Assembly: GCA_964619885.1 (NCBI GenBank)
Contig: CAZUGA010000017.1
Span: forward strand, 19,714 to 83,713
Direction of reading: 5' to 3'
Length of the DNA: 64,000 bases
From: an uncultured Methylococcaceae bacterium
GTDB taxonomy: Bacteria > Pseudomonadota > Gammaproteobacteria > Methylococcales > UBA1147
Positions 14,656-31,215 of the stretch are shown here, one piece after another. The translations under genes and the position numbers were made by a program. Position 1 is the stretch's first letter, and each line of letters starts with the position of its first letter. The notes below the pieces were generated by a model, which was not told where the DNA came from, made no database searches, and saw nothing but the letters and a program-made list of their open reading frames with translations.

Positions 14656-14819
14656 CATTAGTTGCTCAATAGTTGCGCTATTTGATGTCGCCAGGGTTTT
14701 GCCAAACTGGAATCAAGTCGCATGGATTTTTGGCCTCGTCGTAGGCTTGGAGCGGCGAGTGAATTTCGATAATATCACCGGTGTTGCTCCGCTATTGGAT
14801 TATATTAAGAGGGTTAAAG

Positions 14820-15206
14820 ATGAATAATAAAAAATTATGGACTTTACTGTTTGGCTCGGTCGCTTTGTTGGTTTCCAACTATGCGCAATCGGAAGGATCC
14901 ACAGTCACCGAATCTGGCATTGCCGCGTACTACAGTAATGTATTCCAAGGTCGCAAAACCGCCAGCGGTCAACGCTACGACAAAAACAAATTGACCGCCG
15001 CGCACAGAACCTACCCATTCGGCACCCAACTGAAAGTCACCAACCAGGAAAACGGTAAAAGCATCGAGGTCAAGGTAAATGATCGCGGGCCGACCACGCC
15101 GGGCAGAATTATTGATCTTTCCCGACGAGCCGCTAAAGAATTGGGCTATTTAAAAAAGGGTTTGGCGGATGTTACGTTGGAAGTTGTAGAAATGGGAAAT
15201 AAATGA
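14820..15206 (+). CDS. RlpA-like double-psi beta-barrel (DPBB) lipoprotein
   Basis: Signal peptide, then GIAAYYS...G..TASG and a DPBB core (KVNDRGP). Good RBS upstream. Confidence 0.7.
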   Translation: MNNKKLWTLLFGSVALLVSNYAQSEGSTVTESGIAAYYSNVFQGRKTASGQRYDKNKLTAAHRTYPFGTQLKVTNQENGKSIEVKVNDRGPTTPGRIIDLSRRAAKELGYLKKGLADVTLEVVEMGNK

Positions 15207-15207
15207 A

Positions 15208-15354
15208 ATGCGGCCGGGTAATTTGCCGATCAAGATCAAAGCCCAAGCAGCGGATCGGATGATCGAAGTGGAGTTCGACCCGCGCGTAATGTCCAAGGAC
15301 GAGGCCATCGCCGCGGCACGCAAGATTCAAGCATTGGTGGAACCGAAAGCGTAG
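15208..15354 (+). CDS. possible small protein (48 aa) immediately upstream of DGR target 1
   Basis: An ATG-initiated ORF below the 60-aa track cut-off, MRPGNLPIKIKAQAADRMIEVEFDPRVMSKDEAIAAARKIQALVEPKA. It looks protein-like, but no family is recognised. Confidence 0.2.
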   Translation: MRPGNLPIKIKAQAADRMIEVEFDPRVMSKDEAIAAARKIQALVEPKA

Positions 15355-15362
15355 AGGTTCAC

Positions 15363-17336
15363 GTGGCCAAAAAATATGCGTTACTGGTTGGAACCGATCG
15401 ATATGAGGACCGCGGCTTCTCACCGCTAACCGTCCCTCGCGCCGACGTCGCAGCGCTAAAAAATGTATTGACGGATCCGCAGATTGGCGGTTTTGATCAG
15501 GTCGATACACTGTTGAATGGTTCACTCGCCGAGATCATGGAGGCGGTCGGCGAGCTTTTCGGTGACAAATCCAAAGACGATCTTCTGTTACTGTATTTTT
15601 CCGGCCACGGCGCGTTGGATCGTTCGGGCGAATTGCACTTGAGTGTCGCCCAAACCAAGCTCAAACGTTTAAGCACCACCGCACTGTCTTCCACGCTGAT
15701 CAAGAATGAAATGAACCACAGCCGGTCGCGGCGCCAGGTGTTGATCTTAGATTGTTGCTACGCGGGTGCTTTTTCGCGCAATTCCGCGAAATCCAAAAGC
15801 GCAACCGCGGAGCCCGCAGTCACGGAAGCAACCTTCGATGTGAAGGGTTATGGGCGCGAAATTCTGGTGTCGTCATCGGCCACCCAGCGATCCTGGGAAG
15901 GTGATGAAATTATCGGCAACAGCGACAAATCGCTGTTTACCCATTTTCTGGTTCAAGGTCTGGCCGCGGGTGAAGCGGCGCCCCAGGGCGGGTCGGATAT
16001 CACCGTCGGTCAGTTGTACGATTATGTGCACGATAAAGTCGTCGCGGCCAGTCCAGCGGTGACGCCGCAGCGCTGGGCCGAGGCGCAGACCGATTCAATT
16101 GTGTTGGCGCAAAATCCCAAACCGGTGGTCAAAACCACGCCGTTGCCGGAAGATATTTTGAGAGATTTGGACGACGACCGGCCCCACGTTCGCGAGGGCG
16201 CGATACGGGAATTGGGACGGTTGGCGGCGGGTGAAGATCAAAAACGTACTGAAGCCGTGATCGAAGTATTGCGAAACAGGCGGGTTGTGGAGCGGGATAT
16301 TTATGTTCACGAGGCGATCGATGCGGTATTGAGCAAGTTGGAGGCGTCAGCAAATGACGTGGTGGGTGTTGAACAAAAGGATGCAATATCGGCTGAAGAA
16401 TCGGCGGGTCGTCATAGGACCCAAGTTTACCTGTTCATTAGTTTTTTGTTGATCGGGGTGATTGTCGTCTTCTGGAAATCTATAACTACCGACTCCCCAC
16501 CTGATATAGCGCCATCTGTTGTTACGAATCCTAGCGCTGGGGTTCGGACAACGAAAGCCCCACTTGAGGTATCGCCAACCCTTGTCGAATCTTCGAAACC
16601 AGTCGTGTCAGCCAAACGTAAACCGGGAACTGTTTTCCAGGATACCTTGAACGATGGTTCGAAGGGTCCTGAAATGGTTGTCATCCCGGCGGGCAGTTTC
16701 CGTATGGGGGATATTCAAGGTGTAGGTCATAGCGATGAGCAACCCGTGCATAAGGTCACGATCAAGCGGCCTTTTGCGCTAAGCAAATACCCAATCACCT
16801 TTGCCGAATACGACCATTATCGAGAAGCTATCAACAAGCCTAAACCTTCCGATAACGATTGGGGTCGAGGTAATCGACCCGTCATCAATGTTTCTTGGAT
16901 TGATGCAACGGCTTATGCGGCGTGGTTGAGTGATCAAACCGGAAAGCGCTACCGCTTGCCTTCGGAAGCCGAATGGGAATACGCGGCCCGCGGGTGGAAG
17001 GAAACCGAATATTGGTGGGGAGACGAAGCCGATAAGAAACATGCCAATTTTTCTGGATATAATACAACGCCGGTTGATAAATACGCCGCAAATCCGTTTG
17101 GATTGCATGATACTTCGGGGAATGTTTGGGAATGGGTGCAGGATACCTGGCACGATACCTATAAATCGGCCCCAATTGATGGATCTGCATGGTTTGATAG
17201 TGACTCTCGACTCCGCGTGCTGCGTGGCGGCTCTTGGGGCATTGAGCCGGACTTCGCGCGTTCGGCGTACCGGTACAGGTACAGACCGGAGACCTCGAGC
17301 TACTATGTTGGATTTCGCTTGGCCCAGGACCTATAA
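15363..17336 (+). CDS. DGR target protein 1
   Basis: GTG start. Caspase dyad motifs YFSGHG and LDCCYAG, HEAT-like repeats, then the TM segment YLFISFLLIGVIVVFW. The C-terminus carries SUMF1/FGE hallmarks (RLPSEAEWEYAARG, GNVWEWV, RVLRGGSW) and contains VR1. Confidence 0.85.
   Translation: MAKKYALLVGTDRYEDRGFSPLTVPRADVAALKNVLTDPQIGGFDQVDTLLNGSLAEIMEAVGELFGDKSKDDLLLLYFSGHGALDRSGELHLSVAQTKLKRLSTTALSSTLIKNEMNHSRSRRQVLILDCCYAGAFSRNSAKSKSATAEPAVTEATFDVKGYGREILVSSSATQRSWEGDEIIGNSDKSLFTHFLVQGLAAGEAAPQGGSDITVGQLYDYVHDKVVAASPAVTPQRWAEAQTDSIVLAQNPKPVVKTTPLPEDILRDLDDDRPHVREGAIRELGRLAAGEDQKRTEAVIEVLRNRRVVERDIYVHEAIDAVLSKLEASANDVVGVEQKDAISAEESAGRHRTQVYLFISFLLIGVIVVFWKSITTDSPPDIAPSVVTNPSAGVRTTKAPLEVSPTLVESSKPVVSAKRKPGTVFQDTLNDGSKGPEMVVIPAGSFRMGDIQGVGHSDEQPVHKVTIKRPFALSKYPITFAEYDHYREAINKPKPSDNDWGRGNRPVINVSWIDATAYAAWLSDQTGKRYRLPSEAEWEYAARGWKETEYWWGDEADKKHANFSGYNTTPVDKYAANPFGLHDTSGNVWEWVQDTWHDTYKSAPIDGSAWFDSDSRLRVLRGGSWGIEPDFARSAYRYRYRPETSSYYVGFRLAQDL
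17203..17327 (+). repeat. DGR variable repeat VR1 (3' end of target 1)
   Basis: ~123 bp matching the TR at 18834-18958. In the 115-bp core all 18 mismatches are at TR adenine positions. Confidence 0.85.
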
Positions 17337-17410: not shown

Positions 17411-17770
17411 ATGAGCCAAACCACTCCGCAAGCCATCCATCTATGCCATGAGTTGTTGGGTTGGCTCATCCCGTTGCTGGATAAATTCCCACGCAGCGGA
17501 CGTTTCAGCCTGGGTGATCGTTTGGAGAGTGCGCTATTGGATGTGCTGGAACGTTTGGTCGAAGCCGCCTATACCCGGGCAAATCTCAAAGGACAAGCCT
17601 TATCTTCGGCCAATCTCCGGTTAGAAGTTGCGCGGCAACTATGGCGGCTGTGCTTTGAATTCAAGCTGATCTCAACAAAACGCTATCGTTATGGTGCCGA
17701 ATTGATGGACGATTTGGGACGGCAAATCGGCGGTTGGTTGCGCAGCAGCAGCGCAGGTCGCGCTCGATGA
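17411..17770 (+). CDS. avd: DGR accessory variability determinant (Avd-like)
   Basis: 119-aa helical, basic protein directly upstream of the RT with an ATGA stop/start overlap, a typical Avd position. Confidence 0.75.
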   Translation: MSQTTPQAIHLCHELLGWLIPLLDKFPRSGRFSLGDRLESALLDVLERLVEAAYTRANLKGQALSSANLRLEVARQLWRLCFEFKLISTKRYRYGAELMDDLGRQIGGWLRSSSAGRAR

Positions 17771-18876
17771 AAAGGTTGGGTCAAATTTGGGGAAAAATCT
17801 GTAGTTTCGAAAATTTATGGATTGCCTATAGAAAAGCGCGGCTCGGCAAGACTTTACGGCCCAGTGTCGCCTTGTTTTCCATGAATGTGGAAAAAGAGTT
17901 AATGGTTTTGCAAAGAGAACTCCGCGATGGGAGTTATCAACCTGGGGAATATCGGCTTTTTACGATTTATGAACGCAAACCCCGCGCGATCGCCGCCGCG
18001 CCATTTCGGGACCGCGTTGTTCATCATGCGATCATGAATCTGTTAGAGCCCACGTTGGATCGAAGTTTTATAAACGATTCCTATGCATGCCGCAAAGGTA
18101 AAGGGGTTCACCGGGCGGTCGATCGGTTTCAGCGTTGGGCACAACGCTATACCTATGTTTTAAAACTTGATGTCGAGCAATATTTTTCGTCAATCGACCA
18201 TCCGATTCTCAAGGAAAAATTGCATCGCAAAATAAAGGACCGGTCAAGCTTAGCCTTATTGGAAAAAATAATTGATGCCAGCCCGCAAAATCCTAAACGG
18301 CCATTAGACTTTTTTCGGGGTGATGATCTATTGACGCCGTTGGGCAGGGGTGTGGGCATTCCAATCGGGAATCTTACCAGCCAGTTTTTCGCCAATCTTT
18401 TTCTGGATGATCTTGACCATTTCATTAAGCAGGAGCTGCGGGTAAAAGGATATCTCCGCTATGTTGATGATATGGTTTTATTGGCCGATAGCAAAACGGA
18501 GTTGGCCGAATACCGTGAGATTATTCGGGAGAAATTAGAAGATTTAAGGTTGCGAGTGCACCCGAGAAAAGCGCATATCAGCCGCGCTGTCGACGGGTTG
18601 AACTTATTCGGGTATTTGGTTTATCGGGATTATCGAAGGTTAAGGAACGACAATGGTTATCGATTCGCCAGAAAATTGCGCGGGTTTGCTAAGGCTTACG
18701 AAGTTTGGGAGGTTGATTGGGATACATTGAACAGTTCGGTCCAAAGCTGGATCGGTCATGCCAAGCACGCCGATATATGGGGATTGCGCACAGCGATTTT
18801 TTCTGACATTGTATTTCGCAGGGGACCCGACCCACAAACGAATCCGCGTGCTGCGTGGCGGCTCTTGGAACAATAA
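17767..18876 (+). CDS. DGR reverse transcriptase
   Basis: RT domains with the YVDD box and the DGR-specific motif-4 IGNLTSQ (versus QGxxxSP in group II/retron RTs). The 3' end overlaps the TR. Confidence 0.9.
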   Translation: MKRLGQIWGKICSFENLWIAYRKARLGKTLRPSVALFSMNVEKELMVLQRELRDGSYQPGEYRLFTIYERKPRAIAAAPFRDRVVHHAIMNLLEPTLDRSFINDSYACRKGKGVHRAVDRFQRWAQRYTYVLKLDVEQYFSSIDHPILKEKLHRKIKDRSSLALLEKIIDASPQNPKRPLDFFRGDDLLTPLGRGVGIPIGNLTSQFFANLFLDDLDHFIKQELRVKGYLRYVDDMVLLADSKTELAEYREIIREKLEDLRLRVHPRKAHISRAVDGLNLFGYLVYRDYRRLRNDNGYRFARKLRGFAKAYEVWEVDWDTLNSSVQSWIGHAKHADIWGLRTAIFSDIVFRRGPDPQTNPRAAWRLLEQ

Positions 18877-18958
18877 ACCGAACAACGCGCGTTCGGCGAA
18901 CCGGAACAGGAACAAACCGGAGAACTCGAACAACAATGTTGGATTTCGCTTGGCCCAG
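18834..18958 (+). repeat. DGR template repeat (TR)
   Basis: Non-coding copy of the VR, adenine-rich, translating as NNKPNNARSANRNRNKPENSNNNVGFRLAQ. It differs from VR1 and VR2 almost only at its A positions. Confidence 0.85.
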
Positions 18959-19093: not shown

Positions 19094-19134
19094 GCAAGCG
19101 GGGCTGGTAGGATTTTTCCGAAGGCCCCGCTTGC
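19094..19134 (+). terminator. 11-bp-stem hairpin (GCAAGCGGGGC...GCCCCGCTTGC) downstream of RT/TR
   Basis: Inverted repeat seen in sequence. A T-rich tract follows ~20 nt later, so this is a possible 3' end of the RT-TR transcript. Confidence 0.3.
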
Positions 19135-19178
19135 ATTACAAAGATGCTTTCGATCTTTTTAATTTTGGGGGTTGGGAA

Positions 19179-19271
19179 GCAGTTTGTTGATTGATCAGAA
19201 CGCGTGAATACGTCCGTGTAAGCTCCGCTGCAACATCCTTGTTGCAGAAGTCTGATCAATCAACAATCTGC
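19179..19271. repeat. nested inverted repeats between TR and target 2 (outer ~21-bp arms GCAGTTTGTTGATTGATCAGA / TCTGATCAATCAACAATCTGC; inner 8-bp hairpin CTGCAACA-TCCT-TGTTGCAG)
   Basis: Seen directly in sequence. Confidence 0.5.
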
Positions 19272-19393
19272 TTGCTTGCCGAATAGATGGATGGCCGTTT
19301 TATATAGATTTATAGGTTGTAAACATTGGGATTACTCGGAAAATTACAAAGACCTGGATTGATTGAGCCTCGGATTGGATACGGAAAATAAAC

Positions 19394-21136
19394 TTGGCAA
19401 AAAAATACGCGCTTTTGATTGGTAATACGGATTACAAAGACGAACATTTACCGCAATTGAGTGGTTCGCTTGTGGATATTAAATCCGTAGCAGCGGTGTT
19501 GAATAATCGGAAAATTTGTGGATTCGATGAGGTCATACGACTGCCAAACCCGACGTTTTCAGAGTCTATGCGGGCTTTGAGTCAGTTATTTGCAAATAAG
19601 ACCAAGGATGAACTGCTATTGTTTTATTTTAGCGGACACGGAGTTAAAGATCACGCGGGCGACTTGTTCTTCGCGATCAAGGAAACCGAGCATGGGTTGT
19701 ATGACGGAACCGCGATCGCGGCGTCACTGCTGAAAAACATCGTTAACAAAAGCGGCTCGCATCGCCAGGTATTGATACTGGACTGTTGCCACAGCGGAGC
19801 CATCACGCAGGGCCTAAAAGGAATCGATACGATGGTGACAACCGATACGTTCGATGTTACAGGCTATGGCTGTGGGATTATTGCCGCAACCCGCTCGCAT
19901 CAATACGCGGCGGATAGTACTGGCAGCGATGAAAGTAGCCAGCGTTCGTTATTTACGCATTTTTTGGTCGAAGGCTTGGAAACGGGTGCGGCAGCGGACG
20001 AAAGCTCCGATACGGTAACCGTCGAACAGCTCTACCAGTATGTCCACAAAAAAGTTACCGAAGTTCGGCCGGGTATGCAACCTGTGTACATCTGCGACCA
20101 ATCGATCGGGCGGATTGGATTGGCGAAGAATCCGCGCCAAGTTTTTAAATTGCCTGAGGATCTAATGAATGATCTGGTGGATGCCAACCCAAGGACCCGC
20201 ATCGGTGTATTACGCGAATTGAATACAATTGTTGTGAAAGGGGATGAGCGGAAGCGTGCAGCAGTACAAAATGTGCTGAGTGCTCGAATGGACGAAGAAC
20301 GTGACCGTTTTGTACACCAGGAGATTGAGCAATTGTTGACGGTCTTGAGCGAAGTCACCGCGGACACTGTTAAACCCGAGCGTATCTCAGTAACTCGTCC
20401 TGAAAATACCGATTCTCTTGACCCGGGACGGGTATTTAGTGATACCTTGAAAGACGGTTCGAATGGTCCCGAGATGATGGTAATACCTGCAGGAAAATTC
20501 CGAATGGGGGATATTTCAGGCAATGGGGATGAAGATGAAAAACCGGTTCACGAGGTCAAAATCGAACGTCTGTTCGCATTGGGTAAGTACCCGGTAAGCT
20601 TTGCCGAATACGATTATTATTGCGACCAGACCGGCGTGGACAAACCCGGTGATGAAGATTGGGGCCGAAATGATCGTCCGGTCATCAATGTTTCTTGGAA
20701 CGATGCTGTTGCGTACATCGAATGGTTGAGGGAACAAACTGGTAAGCGCTACCGTTTGCCTTCCGAGGCCGAATGGGAATACGCGGCACGGGGCGGGACA
20801 GACACAGCGTATTGGTGGGGAGATGAAGCCGACAAAAATCTTGCGAATTTTAGCGGCAAAAAAACCAATCCGGTGAAAAAATTCAAAGCGAATCTATTCG
20901 GCTTACACGACACATTGGGTAATGTTTGGGAGTGGGTGCAAGATACATGGCACGAGAATTATCAGTCTGCTCCATGCGATGGTTCTGCCTGGTTGGACGA
21001 TGAACTTCGACTCCGCGTACTGCGTGGCGGCTCTTGGTACAGTGAGCCGAACTACGCGCGTTCGGCGTTCCGGAACAGGGACGAACCGGAGTACTCGAAC
21101 TACAATGTTGGATTTCGCTTGGCCCAGGACCTTTAG
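19394..21136 (+). CDS. DGR target protein 2
   Basis: TTG start. Paralog of target 1 with YFSGHG and LDCCHSG caspase motifs and C-terminal FGE motifs containing VR2. No TM helix is evident. Confidence 0.85.
   Translation: MAKKYALLIGNTDYKDEHLPQLSGSLVDIKSVAAVLNNRKICGFDEVIRLPNPTFSESMRALSQLFANKTKDELLLFYFSGHGVKDHAGDLFFAIKETEHGLYDGTAIAASLLKNIVNKSGSHRQVLILDCCHSGAITQGLKGIDTMVTTDTFDVTGYGCGIIAATRSHQYAADSTGSDESSQRSLFTHFLVEGLETGAAADESSDTVTVEQLYQYVHKKVTEVRPGMQPVYICDQSIGRIGLAKNPRQVFKLPEDLMNDLVDANPRTRIGVLRELNTIVVKGDERKRAAVQNVLSARMDEERDRFVHQEIEQLLTVLSEVTADTVKPERISVTRPENTDSLDPGRVFSDTLKDGSNGPEMMVIPAGKFRMGDISGNGDEDEKPVHEVKIERLFALGKYPVSFAEYDYYCDQTGVDKPGDEDWGRNDRPVINVSWNDAVAYIEWLREQTGKRYRLPSEAEWEYAARGGTDTAYWWGDEADKNLANFSGKKTNPVKKFKANLFGLHDTLGNVWEWVQDTWHENYQSAPCDGSAWLDDELRLRVLRGGSWYSEPNYARSAFRNRDEPEYSNYNVGFRLAQDL
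21003..21127 (+). repeat. DGR variable repeat VR2 (3' end of target 2)
   Basis: Matches the TR. In the core there are 11 mismatches at TR adenines plus one G to A at 21019. Confidence 0.85.
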
Positions 21137-21283: not shown

Positions 21284-21813
21284 CTAGCGAAAATGAAAGC
21301 GGATAATATCCAAAATATGGGTTAGGCCCTGACCCTGCGCCAAACTTTGCGCGGTGTTGGCTTGGTGGTCGGCGATGGTGGGGTTTGCGCCGTTCTTCAT
21401 CAGTAATTCTACGATTTTTTCCTGTCCGAATAACGAAGCCATCATCAACGCGGTTTGCCCGGCGTTGTTTCGGTGGTTGATGTCGCATTCGGTGTGTTCG
21501 ATCAGCCATTGCGCAGTTTGGGTATGCCCCTTGAACGCGACCCCATAAAAGCATTGCTACCTCTGGCATCCTGAGCACAAGCATTGGCACCGAAGGCGAG
21601 CAAATGCGCCGCGGTATCGTGATGCCCGTAATAGGTGGCGAGTATAAAAAGATTGTCACCGCGATCATTGCGCGCGTGAATATCGCCGCCAGCGGTGGCG
21701 TAGCTTCGAATGGCATTGATATTTCCGGTCCGGGCGGCATCGAAAGCGTCGATGTCTTCCGCTACAACCGAGTAAGAAATGACTAGTAAGCCTATGGCTA
21801 TGATTTTATTCAT
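21284..21813 (-). pseudogene. ankyrin-repeat protein with signal peptide, interrupted by a -1 frameshift near 21507 (G-run)
   Basis: The 103-aa ORF 21502-21813 ends at a stop, but ankyrin repeats continue in another frame (VAFKGHTQTAQWLIEHTECDINHRNNAGQTALMMAS...) down to the stop at 21284. Confidence 0.55.
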
Positions 21814-21888: not shown

Positions 21889-22998
21889 CTAATTGGGATA
21901 AATTGCGGCAAGTTCTTTAACTTTGGTCATGTTTGCGTTGGCGGCAATACCGACCCGCATGCCATACTCGGGATCCGCCTTGTAAAGATACGATGTGATG
22001 ATATTGCGAATTTCCGGGCTTTTGACCTGGACCAAATCGCCACCGAATGCTTCCACTAACGCGTTTTTTGATCGGGCATCGAAGGACTGGTACAAATCCC
22101 CGGCTTGCTTGAAATCCTGGGTTTTGTGGAACGGGATTTGTTGTGTTGAACCGTTTAACGGTGTCGCGCAAGCCTTGTAATCCGCGTGGGTTACCGCGTA
22201 GCCTGCATCGCTTTGGTAGCGGCTGGGAAAATAATTGACGCTCTGCGCTTTGGTGGACGAAAAACCAATGCCGTCTTGAACGCTGATGGCGTGAACCGGC
22301 GAACGGGGTTTGTTGGGTGCTAATTCCAAATGGTTGGCGCCCAACCGGTAGCGCTGCGTGTCGGCGTACGAAAACAAGCGTCCCTGCAACATCCGGTCTT
22401 CCGAGGGTTCGATGCCGGGGATCATATTGCTCGGCGCAAACGCGGCTTGTTCGGTCCATTGGAAGAAGTTGTCCGGTACTTCGTTCAATACCATTTCACC
22501 GACTTTGCGCGCGGGAACTTGGGATTCTGGCCAGATGACCGTGGTATCCAGTGGGTTAAACGCAAACCGACCCAATTGATTTGGATCCATGGTCTGGATG
22601 TACAGATCCCAAACTGGGAAGTTGCCGCGGTCAATATTTTGGTATAAATCCTGGGTCAAATGGTTGAAGTTGGTCGCCTGGATTTTTTCCGCTTCTGCCG
22701 GTGTTAGACCTTTGATGCCCTGGCGTGATTTCCAGGTGAACTTAACATAGCGAACTTGGCAGTCGTCGGTGACGAATTTAAACGCGTGAACCCCGGAACC
22801 GTCCATCTGGCGCAAACTTTCGGGTATGCCCAACGGCGAGTACAAGAAGGTCAACATATGGGTCGCTTCGGGTTTGAACGAGAAAAAATCGAAATAGCGG
22901 TTTGGGTCCTGATTAAAGTCGCGTGACCGCAGAACCCCACCAAATATCGAGTCGGCAGACCGATAGATAGTTTGTTTGTAAAGAACACAAATAGTTCT
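21889..22998 (-). pseudogene. catalase, N-terminally truncated (lacks ~150 aa including distal-His region)
   Basis: Catalase core and C-terminal motifs are present (RLFSYADTQRYRLG, FDRERIPER-like). Similarity extends upstream of the annotated Met to an in-frame stop at 22999-23001, where homology ends abruptly. Confidence 0.75.
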
Positions 22999-23227: not shown

Positions 23228-23497
23228 ATGACTACTGTAACGATTAAAGATTTGACCACCGAAAAAGAATTAGACCACAAAGCGATGTCTGAAGTCTCCG
23301 GCGGTAACGCTGCGATCGCAATGGCTGATAGCTTGGGTCTGGGCCTTTTCTTCGCCAGCCCTGTCATTCACAACGTCGCTAACGACCAATACAACATCGG
23401 TTCACAGAGCGCTGTCATCGGCGGCGGCAACCTGATCGGCGACGGCGTATTCGCACCGGTTCAATTTCAAGGTTTGTATCAAAGCAACAACGCTTAA
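23228..23497 (+). CDS. double-glycine leader peptide, bacteriocin/microcin-like precursor (paralog 1)
   Basis: The leader MTTVTIKDLTTEKELDHKAMSEVSGG fits the GG-leader consensus. The core is Gly/Ala/Asn-rich and has no Cys. Confidence 0.7.
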   Translation: MTTVTIKDLTTEKELDHKAMSEVSGGNAAIAMADSLGLGLFFASPVIHNVANDQYNIGSQSAVIGGGNLIGDGVFAPVQFQGLYQSNNA

Positions 23498-23538
23498 TTT
23501 TATTCACTGACTTATTTATTTAACGATTAATTGGAGAA

Positions 23539-23793
23539 ATGACCATGACAACTTTATCGATTACTGATTTGAGCAGCGAAAAAGCATTGGACCGTAAGGA
23601 AATGTCTGAAGTATCCGGCGGCACCGACTTTTCGGCTTTGCTAGCCATCGCTAGCCCGTTTATCACGAATATTGCAAACGACCAGTACAACATTGGCGCG
23701 CAGTCGTCTTTCATCGGCGGCGGTAACTATATCGAAGACGGCGTCTACGCACCGGTTCAAATCCAGTGGATGAACCAAAGCAACAACGCTTAA
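23539..23793 (+). CDS. double-glycine leader peptide, bacteriocin/microcin-like precursor (paralog 2)
   Basis: Leader ...KALDRKEMSEVSGG, with a conserved core motif. Confidence 0.7.
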   Translation: MTMTTLSITDLSSEKALDRKEMSEVSGGTDFSALLAIASPFITNIANDQYNIGAQSSFIGGGNYIEDGVYAPVQIQWMNQSNNA

Positions 23794-23838
23794 TTTGAGT
23801 TATTAATTTTAATTTAACAATTATTTGGAGAAACTATC

Positions 23839-24111
23839 ATGACATTATCAATCAAAGATTTGAGCGTAGCTAAAGAAATGGACCGCAAGGAAATGACAGA
23901 AGTCTCTGGCGGGAACGCTGCACTGGCTATGGCCGGTGGCTTCGGACTGGATATTGCGGCTTTCATCGGTAGCCCAGTGATCCACAACGTCGCTAACGAT
24001 CAGTACAACACTGGCGCACAAAGCGCTGGAATCGGCGGCGGCAACATGGTCGGCGACGGCGTATTCGCACCGGTTCAGTGGCAGGATCTGTACCAAAGCA
24101 ACAACGCTTAA
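23839..24111 (+). CDS. double-glycine leader peptide, bacteriocin/microcin-like precursor (paralog 3)
   Basis: Leader MTLSIKDLSVAKEMDRKEMTEVSGG. The upstream spacer and leader are near-identical to paralog 4. Confidence 0.7.
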   Translation: MTLSIKDLSVAKEMDRKEMTEVSGGNAALAMAGGFGLDIAAFIGSPVIHNVANDQYNTGAQSAGIGGGNMVGDGVFAPVQWQDLYQSNNA

Positions 24112-24156
24112 TTTGAGTTATTAATTTTAATTTAACAATTATTTGGAGAAACTATC

Positions 24157-24429
24157 ATGACATTATCAATCAAAGATTTGAGCGTAGCTAAAGAAATGGA
24201 CCGCAAGGAAATGACAGAGGTCTCTGGCGGAAACGCTGCACTGGCTATGGCCGGCGGCTTCGGATTGGATCTTGCTGCTTTCATCGGTAGCCCGGTCATC
24301 CACAACGTGGCTAACGATCAGAAAAACACGGGCGCACAAGCTGCTTCCATCGGCGGCGGCAACTTAGTCGGCGACGGCGTATTCGCACCGGTTCAGTGGC
24401 AGTCTATGTACCAAAGCAACGTATCTTAA
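24157..24429 (+). CDS. double-glycine leader peptide, bacteriocin/microcin-like precursor (paralog 4)
   Basis: Tandem duplicate of paralog 3, with a ~318-bp repeat period. Confidence 0.7.
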   Translation: MTLSIKDLSVAKEMDRKEMTEVSGGNAALAMAGGFGLDLAAFIGSPVIHNVANDQKNTGAQAASIGGGNLVGDGVFAPVQWQSMYQSNVS

Positions 24430-24659: not shown

Positions 24660-25110
24660 TAAATTGGATTATTCAACCAGCCGAATGATCTGGTACTTTT
24701 CGGAGGCTGTATACCTCATGTATTGTCCCCCCATCCCCGATCATACATTTTTTAAAGTAGACGGTTCTCCATAGACAGCAGGGTTTTGACTTTATCGGTC
24801 GTCGCTTCTCGAACCGTGTCACGCGTAAGCCGTTTTTCACCTGCTTCAAGCAATTCCTTCGACCAGCAATAGTAAATATTGGTATGACCCCTTCCCAGCG
24901 ACACAGCTCGGCAAGGCTGTCTTCACCCCGAAGACCTTCCAGTACAATACGAATCATTTCTTCAGCAGAATAATGACGTCGCGTGGCCCGACGGATATCT
25001 TGAACGGTTTTTTCTGCGCTGTGTTTCTTGGTCATCATCGTTTCCTCTTTGGGTCAACGATGAACCAAAACTGTCTCTTAGGCAATCAGGCTATTCTGTC
25101 CAACTTGGGC
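24660..25110 (-). mobile_element. IS3-family insertion sequence remnant (orfA with frameshift; orfB/integrase part absent)
   Basis: ORF 24673-25038 encodes an IS3-type OrfA N-terminus (MTKKHSAEKTVQDIRRATRRHYSAEEMIRIVLEGLRGEDSLAELCRWEG). An IS3-like continuation (NIYYCWSKELLEAGEKRLTRDTVREA) appears in another frame. No DDE catalytic domain follows. Confidence 0.55.
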
Positions 25111-27991: not shown

Positions 27992-29305
27992 ATGATAAAT
28001 GCTAAAAAGAATACTTCTATCAACAAGGGTTTAGTGGGGGGATTATTTGCTATCTCGGCGATGACGATGCCGGCGATATCGCACGCAGAAGATGTCCTGA
28101 ATTCGGGGGATACCGCGTGGATGTTGACATCGATGGTGTTGGTTTTGTTTATGACAATTCCAGGTCTTTCATTGTTCTACGCGGGAATGGTAAGAAGCAA
28201 AAACCCACTGTCAGTGATGATGCAATGTTTCACCATTACCTGTTTGATTACGGTCATTTGGGTGATTTATGGCTACAGTCTGGCGTTTGGTGACGGCGAT
28301 GCCTTTGTCGGTTATCTAGGCAAAGCTTTTATGGCAGGCGTCGGCGTGGAAACTTTGAGCGGAACTATACCGGAATCAGTGTTCGCAATGTTCCAATTAA
28401 CCTTTGCGATCATTACACCAGCTTTGATCGTTGGTGCTTTTGCCGAGCGCATGAAATTTTCTGCGATGCTCTGGTTTATGGCCTTATGGGTGACGGTAGT
28501 TTACGCGCCGGTTTGTCACTGGGTATGGGGCGGCGGTTGGCTCGGCGACCAAGGCGTACTGGATTTCGCAGGCGGTACAGTTGTACATATTAACGCGGGC
28601 ATTGCCGGATTGGTTTGTGCGATTGTTCTGGGCAAGAGAAAAGGCTATCCATCAACTGCAATGCCGCCCCATAGTATGGTGTTGACCTTGGTTGGTGCTG
28701 GAATGTTGTGGGTAGGGTGGTTTGGTTTTAACGCGGGCAGCGAGCTTGCCGCGGACGGAACTGCCGGAATGGCAATGGTAGTGACTCAGGTGGCAACTGC
28801 GACGGCTGCGTTAACCTGGATGTTCGTTGAGTGGAAAATTCATGGCAAACCTAGCGCATTGGGGATTGCGTCGGGCGCGGTTGCTGGACTGGTTGCCATT
28901 ACTCCTGCGTCCGGTTACGTTGGGCCGATGGGAGCGTTGGCGATCGGTGCTGCCTCAGGTTTGGGTTGTTACATTGTTGCGGTGCACATTAAGCGGGCTT
29001 TGGGCTTTGATGACTCATTGGATGCGTTTAGCGTTCACGGGGTTGGCGGAATTATCGGGGCTATATTGACTGGCGTCTTTGCGGATGCGGCACTCGGTGG
29101 GGTTGGTCTGGAGGAAGGCGTCACGATCGGCGGACAAGTTTGGAAACAAATGATTGGAATAGGTGCGACCGTAGTTTACGATCTAATCGCAACGCTGATC
29201 TTGTTGAAAATTGTTGATCTTGTCATAGGTCTGCGCGTAACCGGCGACGAAGAGTCGGAAGGATTGGATATCGCGTTGCATGATGAACGGGGATACAACT
29301 TGTAG
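27992..29305 (+). CDS. amtB: ammonium transporter
   Basis: Signal peptide plus an 11-TM Amt fold with conserved signature motifs. Immediately downstream of glnK. Confidence 0.9.
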   Translation: MINAKKNTSINKGLVGGLFAISAMTMPAISHAEDVLNSGDTAWMLTSMVLVLFMTIPGLSLFYAGMVRSKNPLSVMMQCFTITCLITVIWVIYGYSLAFGDGDAFVGYLGKAFMAGVGVETLSGTIPESVFAMFQLTFAIITPALIVGAFAERMKFSAMLWFMALWVTVVYAPVCHWVWGGGWLGDQGVLDFAGGTVVHINAGIAGLVCAIVLGKRKGYPSTAMPPHSMVLTLVGAGMLWVGWFGFNAGSELAADGTAGMAMVVTQVATATAALTWMFVEWKIHGKPSALGIASGAVAGLVAITPASGYVGPMGALAIGAASGLGCYIVAVHIKRALGFDDSLDAFSVHGVGGIIGAILTGVFADAALGGVGLEEGVTIGGQVWKQMIGIGATVVYDLIATLILLKIVDLVIGLRVTGDEESEGLDIALHDERGYNL

Positions 29306-29919: not shown

Positions 29920-31215
29920 ATGAAAAATTATTCTAAAAAAATGATAGCTGTGACATCAGCTGCTTTGTTGTTGCCTTCGGTTGCCCTTGGGGATGAGTTG
30001 AATCAAGCTAATACGGCGTGGATATTGACCTCGACTGCACTGGTGTTGTTTATGACGATTCCTGGCTTATCGCTGTTCTATGCCGGATTGGTGCGCGCCA
30101 AGAATGTGCTCTCGGTATTGATGCAATGCTTTGTGATTACCTGCGCGATTTCGATTTTATGGTTGATAGGTGTTTATAGCCTGGCATTTGACGATGGCGG
30201 TAGTGTTCAGGCCTACATTGGTGGGACGGACAAGGTTATGGCATTTGGCATCGATGTGAACAGTCTGATCGGAGATATACCGGAAACTGTATTTTTTATG
30301 TTTCAGATGACCTTTGCCATCATAACTCCGGCCTTGATTGTTGGCGGTTTTGCAGAGCGCATGAAGTTTTCTGCGATGTTATTATTTAGTATGTTGTGGA
30401 TTGTTTTTGTCTACGCGCCGGTTTGTCATTGGGTATGGGGTGGCGGTTGGTTGTCGGAGATGGGCTTTTTGGATTTTGCTGGTGGCTCGGTAGTGCATAT
30501 CAACGCTGGCGTCGCGTCGTTGGTGGCTGCAATGGTAATTGGCAGACGACGTGGATTTCCGGATACGGCAATGCCTCCGCATAATCTAACCATGTGTATA
30601 ACTGGTGCTGGCATGCTATGGGTAGGCTGGTTTGGGTTTAACGCGGGTAGCGCGTTAGCAGCAAACGGTTCCGCTGGGATGGCGATGTTGGTCACGCATA
30701 TAGGTGCGGCTGCCGGGGCTTTGACCTGGATGCTGATCGAATGGGTACGTTTTGGCAAGCCCAGCGTTTTGGGTATTGTAACTGGAATGGTCGCGGGATT
30801 GGGAACGATTACGCCGGCATCGGGTTTTGTTGGACCGATTGGAGCATTGGCGATCGGATGTATCGCTGGAACAGTGTGTTTTATGGCGACACAGTTTTTG
30901 AAGCGTGTCCTTAAAATTGATGATTCTTTAGATGTTTTTCCGGTTCACGGTGTTGGGGGGATGGTTGGGACTACGTTAACCGGTGTATTTGCTGCGAGTT
31001 CTCTCGGCGGCATGGGTTTAGCGGATGGCGTGACGATCGGTGACCAAGTTGTAGTTCAATTGATCGGGGTGTTTGCAACTATAGTATGGAGCGCAGTAAT
31101 TAGTTATGTGTTGCTCAAAGTAGTTGACATGGTCTCTGGTTTGCGCGTTGAGGTTGACGACGAAACCCAAGGTTTGGATGTTGTTCTACACGAAGAAACG
31201 GGTTACAACATGTAA
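29920..31215 (+). CDS. amtB: ammonium transporter, second copy
   Basis: Paralog of 27992-29305. Confidence 0.9.
   Translation: MKNYSKKMIAVTSAALLLPSVALGDELNQANTAWILTSTALVLFMTIPGLSLFYAGLVRAKNVLSVLMQCFVITCAISILWLIGVYSLAFDDGGSVQAYIGGTDKVMAFGIDVNSLIGDIPETVFFMFQMTFAIITPALIVGGFAERMKFSAMLLFSMLWIVFVYAPVCHWVWGGGWLSEMGFLDFAGGSVVHINAGVASLVAAMVIGRRRGFPDTAMPPHNLTMCITGAGMLWVGWFGFNAGSALAANGSAGMAMLVTHIGAAAGALTWMLIEWVRFGKPSVLGIVTGMVAGLGTITPASGFVGPIGALAIGCIAGTVCFMATQFLKRVLKIDDSLDVFPVHGVGGMVGTTLTGVFAASSLGGMGLADGVTIGDQVVVQLIGVFATIVWSAVISYVLLKVVDMVSGLRVEVDDETQGLDVVLHEETGYNM

Follow-up and report, generated by a model that had tools for sequence, protein, structure and literature searches.

A diversity-generating retroelement with two caspase-lectin targets, one predicted to be membrane-spanning and one soluble, beside a truncated EACC1 gene in an uncultured member of the Methylococcaceae

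What is gained by a bacterium that couples a protease to a lectin domain whose binding residues are subject to targeted mutagenesis? The question is raised by a 64,000-nucleotide stretch of contig CAZUGA010000017.1 from an uncultured Methylococcaceae bacterium (assembly GCA_964619885.1, positions 19,714 to 83,713 of the forward strand), called here the window, in which a diversity-generating retroelement (DGR) is combined with two target genes, both encoding an N-terminal caspase-like domain and a C-terminal C-type lectin (CLec) domain, and with the remnant of a gene of the EACC1 family. The explanation that we consider the probable one is that the DGR rewrites the lectin binding face of two paralogous sensor-proteases belonging to an EACC1-caspase conflict (anti-invader) system, target 1 being a single-pass inner-membrane sensor and target 2 its soluble cytoplasmic paralogue. 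A preliminary description, made from the sequence alone, had already proposed a receptor-like design with a hypervariable domain coupled to a protease in one membrane-spanning and one soluble copy, and this was supported by the domain matches, the catalytic dyad, the fold, hydropathy, the structural model and the topology statistics; the EACC1 partner gene had been overlooked in it.

The elements located on the forward strand between 15208 and 21136 follow each other in the order 48-codon open reading frame (ORF), target 1, accessory protein Avd, reverse transcriptase (RT), template repeat (TR) and target 2 (Table 1). The RT matched Pfam RVT_1 at E 6e-22, with group II RTs as its best NCBIfam relatives, and its length of 369 amino acids was obtained also in a separate gene call. 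The TR contains 34 adenines and 17 variable codons, mostly AAC or AAT, from which a potential peptide diversity of ~10^17.8 was computed for each variable repeat (VR). Both VRs occupy the final ~40 codons of the targets, inside their FGE-sulfatase domains. Since RT and Avd are accompanied by repeats whose differences from the TR are confined almost wholly to adenines, the locus is, by the signature of its genes and repeats, a canonical chromosomal DGR with Avd, RT, a single TR and two VRs. Two hairpins were also noticed between the TR and target 2, at 19094-19134 and 19177-19273: one of them, which is GC-rich, consists of an 11-bp stem closing a loop of 19 nt, while in the other a spacer of 51 nt separates arms of 23 nt with 96% complementarity. 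These hairpins could serve as a terminator, form a structure at the 3' end of the DGR RNA or represent a small mobile element; an Rfam scan of the whole window gave no family at the gathering threshold.

Table 1. Coordinates of the features discussed in the text (positions are those of the window; aa, amino acids; nt, nucleotides; TM, transmembrane)
Feature	Position	Strand	Size or aa range	Details
EACC1 remnant, 5'-truncated	15208-15354	+	48 aa	directly upstream of target 1
DGR target 1	15363-17336	+	657 aa	GTG start; caspase, helical linker, TM helix, proline/serine/threonine-rich tether, CLec domain with VR1
Target 1, Peptidase_C14 domain	15369-16079	+	aa 3-239	His82 codon 15606-15608; Cys132 codon 15756-15758
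Target 1, helical linker	16149-16388	+	aa 263-342	four helices; AlphaFold predicted local distance difference test score (pLDDT) ~90
Target 1, predicted TM helix	16425-16475	+	V355-W371	VYLFISFLLIGVIVVFW
Target 1, FGE-sulfatase-type CLec domain	16665-17324	+	aa 435-654	
VR1	17208-17327	+		17 mismatches to TR, 17/17 at TR adenines; 14 codons changed
Avd accessory protein	17411-17770	+	119 aa	NF033474 DivGenRetAVD, 87.8 bits (cutoff 80); Pfam bAvd
DGR RT	17767-18876	+	369 aa	from ATG at 17767; YVDD at aa 232
TR	18839-18958	+	120 nt	overlaps 3' end of RT
DGR target 2	19394-21136	+	580 aa	TTG start; caspase aa 3-224, helical linker, FGE-type CLec domain aa 358-577
Target 2, catalytic codons		+		His82 codon 19637-19639; Cys132 codon 19787-19789
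VR2	21008-21127	+		13 mismatches to TR, 12/13 at TR adenines, the other G-to-A; 11 variable residues
Ankyrin gene, apparent pseudogene	21284-21813	-		
Catalase gene, apparent pseudogene	21889-22857	-		

The unusual start codons assigned to the two targets in the preliminary description were borne out: an in-frame upstream ATG is present for neither of them, the N-terminus MAKKYALL common to both is aligned to position 1 of the Peptidase_C14 model, and the target lengths were reproduced by independent gene calls, so that the non-ATG starts are forced. The intervals given in Table 1 are the longest ORFs. Two cluster variants (P0277 and P0279) considered as possible VR variants were rejected, as they differ solely in the translation of this non-ATG start.

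A peptidase C14 domain at the start of both targets was confirmed with Pfam Peptidase_C14 (PF00656; E 9e-16 for target 1 and 3e-20 for target 2) and with NCBIfam NF047832, 'caspase, EACC1-associated type' (167.5 and 150.3 bits, respectively, at a cutoff of 140), while Foldseek matched the N-terminal domain of target 1 to MALT1 (E 1e-11). The His/Cys dyad reported earlier is intact: an alignment of 44 homologous sequences shows no variation at H82 (in YFSGHG) or at C132 (the latter of the two Cys in LILDCC), and in a search of the PDB with a profile of the caspase domain (E 1e-6) their counterparts in MALT1 were the His of 'YAGHG' and the Cys of 'LLDMC', the catalytic residues H415 and C464 of that protein. 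A phmmer search of the PDB with the caspase domain gave no match, and a profile was required to reach MALT1. In the AlphaFold2 model of target 1 (mean pLDDT 84.7), the caspase occupies residues 1-250 and the FGE-type domain residues 421-657 (pLDDT >94). The part that follows the caspase, originally described as HEAT-like repeats, is modeled as four helices (263-269, 274-288, 293-309 and 313-342), and it is as a helical linker that it can be retained; the HEAT assignment itself is weak and below threshold, with HEAT_2 reaching 17.1 bits (E 0.007) in target 1 against a cutoff of 27.7 and no match in target 2. Precomputed matches to HEAT_2 or HEAT_EZ are present in a few homologs.

The C-terminal halves of both targets, for which an FGE-sulfatase-type CLec fold had been predicted, matched Pfam FGE-sulfatase at E 9e-61 (target 1) and 9e-59 (target 2), and a Foldseek comparison of the target 1 domain with the PDB retrieved PvdO (5hha, E 4e-26), FGE (2q17) and the DGR-diversified lectin TvpA (2y3c, E 6e-15). 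The VR lies at the very C-terminus of this fold, as described, but instead of a single terminal strand it spans several short strands and loops in the AlphaFold model. The match to PvdO and FGE gives rise to a different reading, according to which the C-terminal domains are FGE/PvdO/EgtB-like oxidases and not binders, and the hydrophobic segment of target 1 is a buried helix. The best-scoring NCBIfam and Foldseek matches are indeed PvdO and FGE; however, the scores to enzyme families were all far under the curated cutoffs (for example, 188 bits to PvdO versus 500). The catalytic Cys pair of FGE sits in the C-terminal stretch that is occupied here by the VR. Beyond residue 132, target 1 contains no further Cys, and in target 2 the stretch 540-580 is free of Cys; the Cu-binding catalytic pair is, therefore, absent from both, and the stretch in which it would be expected is the one mutagenised by the DGR. 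On sequence grounds, the VR takes the place of the catalytic pair, and the domains have the FGE fold without being members of the enzyme family. With enzyme scores below the cutoffs and the Cys pair missing, an enzymatic identity of the C-terminal domain was rejected, and the oxidase reading as a whole can be regarded as effectively refuted.

The same applies to its second part. The transmembrane (TM) helix predicted in the preliminary description between the two halves of target 1 was corroborated by three features: the maximum of the Kyte-Doolittle hydropathy in a 19-residue window is 2.26 for this segment; the AlphaFold model contains an isolated helix at 356-372 flanked by low-confidence unstructured segments; and of the 120 best homologs, about half possess a single hydrophobic segment, which occupies the same place between the caspase and lectin domains. 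Target 2 reaches a hydropathy maximum of just 1.01, in agreement with the earlier statement that it has no TM helix. A buried helix is contradicted by the isolation of the segment between disordered linkers, by its conserved position and by the strong positive-inside bias of the family, and was rejected. As to this bias, an excess of lysine and arginine (K/R) on the caspase side was found in 31 of 34 TM-type homologs and the reverse in none of them, with a mean of 3.8 K/R in the 15-residue flank on the caspase side versus 1.3 on the other (34 proteins; Wilcoxon p = 1e-6). Furthermore, target 1 lacks an N-terminal signal peptide and begins with a folded part of ~350 residues, which argues for the N-in/C-out orientation. 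An arrangement with a cytoplasmic caspase and with the lectin domain across the membrane is by far the most likely; the predicted topology of target 1 rests on family-level statistics. By its ArgS, whose closest named relatives are those of Methylobacter, Methylovulum and Methylomarinum (67-69% identity), the host is placed near Methylococcales. Since the host is a diderm gammaproteobacterium, the lectin domain would face the periplasm, and the external location proposed for the hypervariable domain can be kept with this amendment, 'outside' being the periplasmic side of the inner membrane. A tether of ~45 residues rich in proline, serine and threonine joins the TM helix to the lectin domain.

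The link to EACC1 comes from the type of the caspase and from the short ORF directly preceding target 1. The EACC1 two-gene system was defined by Kaur et al. (2020, eLife, PMC7159879); at least 33% of its caspases have TM helices, and some have extracellular sensor domains (PMC7159879). Among the loci related to the one in the window, full-length EACC1 genes are located directly upstream of the TM-type targets in L003 (118 aa), L027 (146 aa) and L029 (141 aa), and genes of 127 aa upstream of caspase-FGE genes in L028 and L030; in L027, the gene order is as in the window, with an intact EACC1. A tblastn comparison of the 118-aa protein from L003 with the window showed that its residues 69-115 alone match the remnant (49% identity, E 2e-13), and its N-terminal 68 residues have no match anywhere in the window. 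A hidden Markov model of the remnant family matched L027_146 (4e-53), L029_141 (5e-32), L030_127 (2e-5) and L028_127 (2e-3), and the L028 protein in turn exceeded the cutoff of Pfam PF19953 (EACC1), with 31 bits where 23.6 are required; PF19953 is matched by 17 of the 99 family members, with no competing family. The EACC1 assignment of the remnant was made via this family profile and the Pfam-positive members: when the 48-aa ORF, the 118-aa protein of L003 and P0122-P0125 were themselves scanned against Pfam and NCBIfam, EACC1 was not matched even at permissive thresholds. A profile of the EACC1 subfamily closest to the window found 552 cluster representatives, typically of 125-145 aa, two of them (P0151 and P0219) being natural fusions to an EACC1-type caspase.

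The remnant is the shortest among the 150 best family matches listed, and the same 48-aa gene was found in independent assemblies. Compared with the EACC1 proteins of 125-146 aa, what is left is the last beta-hairpin and helix; the N-terminal (autoinhibitory) domain, the hydrophobic helix and the region of cleavage are missing, and so the canonical output is not encoded in cis. The order of elements in a full-length EACC1-like relative, beta-alpha, linker, hydrophobic segment, beta-hairpin and alpha, was taken from an AlphaFold model of low confidence (pLDDT 58, six sequences), of which the secondary-structure layout alone was used. Immediately upstream of the remnant an rlpA-like (DPBB) ORF was noticed (14781-15206, forward strand), which matches only positions 1-95 of the 208-position RlpA model and whose end lies 2 nt ahead of the remnant's ATG. 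Both genes may have been shortened by one and the same deletion, though short DPBB-only proteins are common too.

The biochemistry of such a system was described for the pair from Ktedonobacter racemifer, in which a sensor-activated caspase cleaves EACC1 near Asp49, releasing a C-terminal fragment of ~7 kDa which is toxic and permeabilises liposomes, whereby the effect is abolished by mutation of the catalytic Cys (Evans et al., 2025, bioRxiv 10.1101/2025.11.14.688446); cleavage and permeabilisation were shown solely for this pair, and DGR-associated EACC1-protease loci were listed in the same work. By analogy, binding of a ligand to the variable lectin domain would drive assembly and activation of the caspase, the activated caspase would cut the small EACC1 protein encoded upstream, and the cleaved EACC1 would yield a pore-forming fragment killing the infected cell. 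Homology would thus divide the labour between the DGR as the source of binding diversity, the caspase as a relay and EACC1 as the executor. The coupling of the variable domain to a protease effector, as proposed in the preliminary description, is retained in this scheme, albeit the caspase itself is, by analogy with the EACC1 family, probably a relay and not the terminal effector. It is from the characterised relatives that we infer ligand-induced activation, EACC1 cleavage and a role in defence, and the present functional state of the module is inferred as well.

Several observations weigh against this explanation. The EACC1 in cis is truncated, and a complete gene, with an N-terminal alpha+beta domain, a hydrophobic helix rich in small residues and C-terminal beta strands, is not present 5' of the caspase in the window. 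Homologs from Lamprocystis and Nostoc annotated as the same caspase type have no plausible upstream EACC1 ORF, so that the pairing with EACC1 is not obligatory. The VRs were identical in all assemblies carrying the locus and so give no sign of ongoing diversification, albeit consensus assemblies are a weak test of such variation. The K/R bias in the flanks of target 1's own TM helix is weak (2 versus 1). Finally, a decaying region would fit the state of two neighbouring genes: the ankyrin-repeat gene downstream of target 2 is frameshifted into ORFs of 103 and 54 aa, and the catalase ORF beside it (322 aa) misses its N-terminal third, with no remnant upstream.

Several of these points also fit the reading of the module as a decaying relic, non-functional after the loss of EACC1, whose large ORFs have not yet been disabled. 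The reduction of EACC1 to 48 codons, the disruption of the adjoining genes and the invariant VRs all agree with such a relic, as does the related locus L003, already deprived of RT and TR. But both targets at their full length, the Avd, the RT with its YVDD and both dyads are intact, and a single non-adenine change in the 240 nt of VR/TR repeats argues for recent activity of the DGR. The intact genes and the TR/VR differences, nearly all at adenines, speak for recent function of the sensors; we consider the relic unlikely.

Somewhat less likely still is a signalling function outside defence, in which the lectins would respond to self ligands or to ligands of the environment and the orthocaspase would act on regulatory substrates, serving tuning or programmed differentiation and not abortive infection. 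Such a role has been proposed for the cyanobacterial orthocaspase-CLec variable proteins (PMC7517822), the retention of the sensors after the loss of EACC1 fits an EACC1-independent role, and the upstream EACC1 is missing in some homologs. Against it, the caspase subtype is defined by its association with EACC1, the closest relatives keep EACC1 in the operon, and the characterised EACC1-caspase pair is a phage-triggered toxin (bioRxiv 10.1101/2025.11.14.688446).

If the anti-invader explanation is followed, the loss of EACC1 in cis means that the output requires a substrate encoded elsewhere in the genome, an EACC1 copy or another one, or else the kill switch is disarmed. In an improbable variant of it, the two intact sensors may have acquired an output that is not suicidal, or the translatable 48-residue tail may serve as a decoy or cap, either by binding the caspase or by preventing the oligomerisation of EACC1. 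If true, a pore-forming immune effector would in either case have given rise to a natural 'disarmed' or anti-toxin derivative.

The relatives of the locus also allowed the origin of the two targets to be traced. The caspase domain of target 1 is 84% identical to that of the target 1-like protein of L003 and 64% to that of L027, with the corresponding values for target 2 being 73% and 59%, while the identity between the two types is 41-49% across the loci and 41% for the pair in the window. The TM helix is confined to the target 1 type in all three loci (window, L003 and L027). Because the caspases group by type across the three loci, the TM/soluble pair is an old duplication and not a local accident. 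The lectin domains showed a different pattern: with the VR excluded, that of target 1 in the window (16623-17207, compared with 20423-21007 of target 2) is 71% identical to target 2 but just 36-37% identical to the target 1-like proteins of L003 and L027. Being closer to target 2 than to the lectins of its own type, the target 1 lectin domain seems to have been replaced or gene-converted wholly by a target 2-type copy in this lineage. In L027, the two targets share only their last ~300 nt. L003 (9643-14465 of a 240-kb ENA contig) still has EACC1 and both targets, the TM and the soluble one, together with an Avd that matches weakly, but RT and TR are missing between the targets; judged by this gene content, it is a DGR that lost its diversifying machinery. 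The loci L028-L030 are EACC1-caspase-FGE modules without a nearby DGR. The combination of Peptidase_C14 and FGE-sulfatase is present in most of the 120 best database matches, whose hosts include Methylococcales, Chromatiaceae (Thiodictyon, Lamprocystis), Competibacter, Nostoc, Chloroflexi and Moduliflexus. A search of genome contigs with target 1 retrieved mainly relatives of the FGE domain, via the pattern WEWVQDTW, and no near-identical genome.

In comparison with described systems, the locus shares with the EACC1-caspase system the N-terminal EACC1-associated caspase and the variable C-terminal sensor, often behind a TM helix, as well as the small EACC1 gene immediately 5' in its closest relatives; it differs in that the EACC1 of the window is a 48-codon 3' remnant and in that one EACC1 position serves two caspase paralogues, a TM and a soluble one. 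The cyanobacterial orthocaspase-CLec DGR proteins (Vallota-Eastman et al., 2020, PMC7517822) likewise consist of a caspase-type peptidase fused to a C-terminal CLec with a VR, and for some of them a membrane-bound or secreted location is predicted (PMC7517822). In contrast to them, the present locus has a gammaproteobacterial host, an explicit link to EACC1 and TM and soluble targets in one cassette. Two paralogous CLec targets per DGR, with variable domains predicted to lie in the cytoplasm for one and in the periplasm for the other, are known from DGR loci 3 and 9 of Thiohalocapsa PB-PSB1 (Dore et al., 2024, PNAS, PMC10907252), where they were interpreted as hypermutating antigen sensors of conflict systems (PMC10907252), but the N-terminal parts of these targets are formed by STAND NTPase or unknown domains and not by an EACC1-type caspase. 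DGR-diversified FGE-type ('FGS') domains have been proposed as analogues of adaptive immune receptors (PMC8195603). TvpA of Treponema denticola has the same FGE-type lectin fold with a C-terminal DGR VR (target-normalised TM-score 0.67 in Foldseek), being, however, a stand-alone surface lipoprotein without a protease domain. Finally, the targets have in common with the MALT1 paracaspase and metacaspases the caspase-hemoglobinase fold and the sequence contexts of the His/Cys dyad; these proteins are nevertheless remote in sequence and have other accessory domains and a different biological setting.

The remainder of the window is ordinary chromosome (PriA, ArgS, YifB, PpnN and GGDEF/EAL proteins), with three further observations. 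Four tandem paralogous ORFs of 84-90 aa (23228-24429, forward strand) have N-termini resembling double-glycine leaders (…KEMSEVSGG) and weakly match the bacteriocin signal TIGR01847 (E 0.054); they may form an array of bacteriocin or secreted-peptide genes. A 121-aa ORF ~3.5 kb downstream of the DGR (24673-25038, reverse strand), whose N-terminus presumably resembles that of the IS3-family transposase OrfA, may be a fragment of a mobile element. Two paralogues of the ammonium transporter AmtB are encoded close together on the forward strand (27992-29305 and 29920-31215).

Each element of the architecture has been published before and the architecture as such is not new, so that current concepts remain unchanged. 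What sets the locus apart is that EACC1 is truncated, that the pairing of a TM with a soluble target is conserved within a cassette of EACC1 and DGR, and that the lectin domain is mosaic. The locus represents a clean gammaproteobacterial case of hypermutating proteins resembling immune receptors, in which one TR feeds a caspase sensor facing the periplasm and another in the cytoplasm, and this pairing is conserved in at least three related loci. The intact loci of the L027 type offer a compact system for testing antigen sensing, caspase-dependent pore formation and signal transmission through a single membrane pass, and the truncated EACC1 of the window is a natural experiment on the loss of a death effector.

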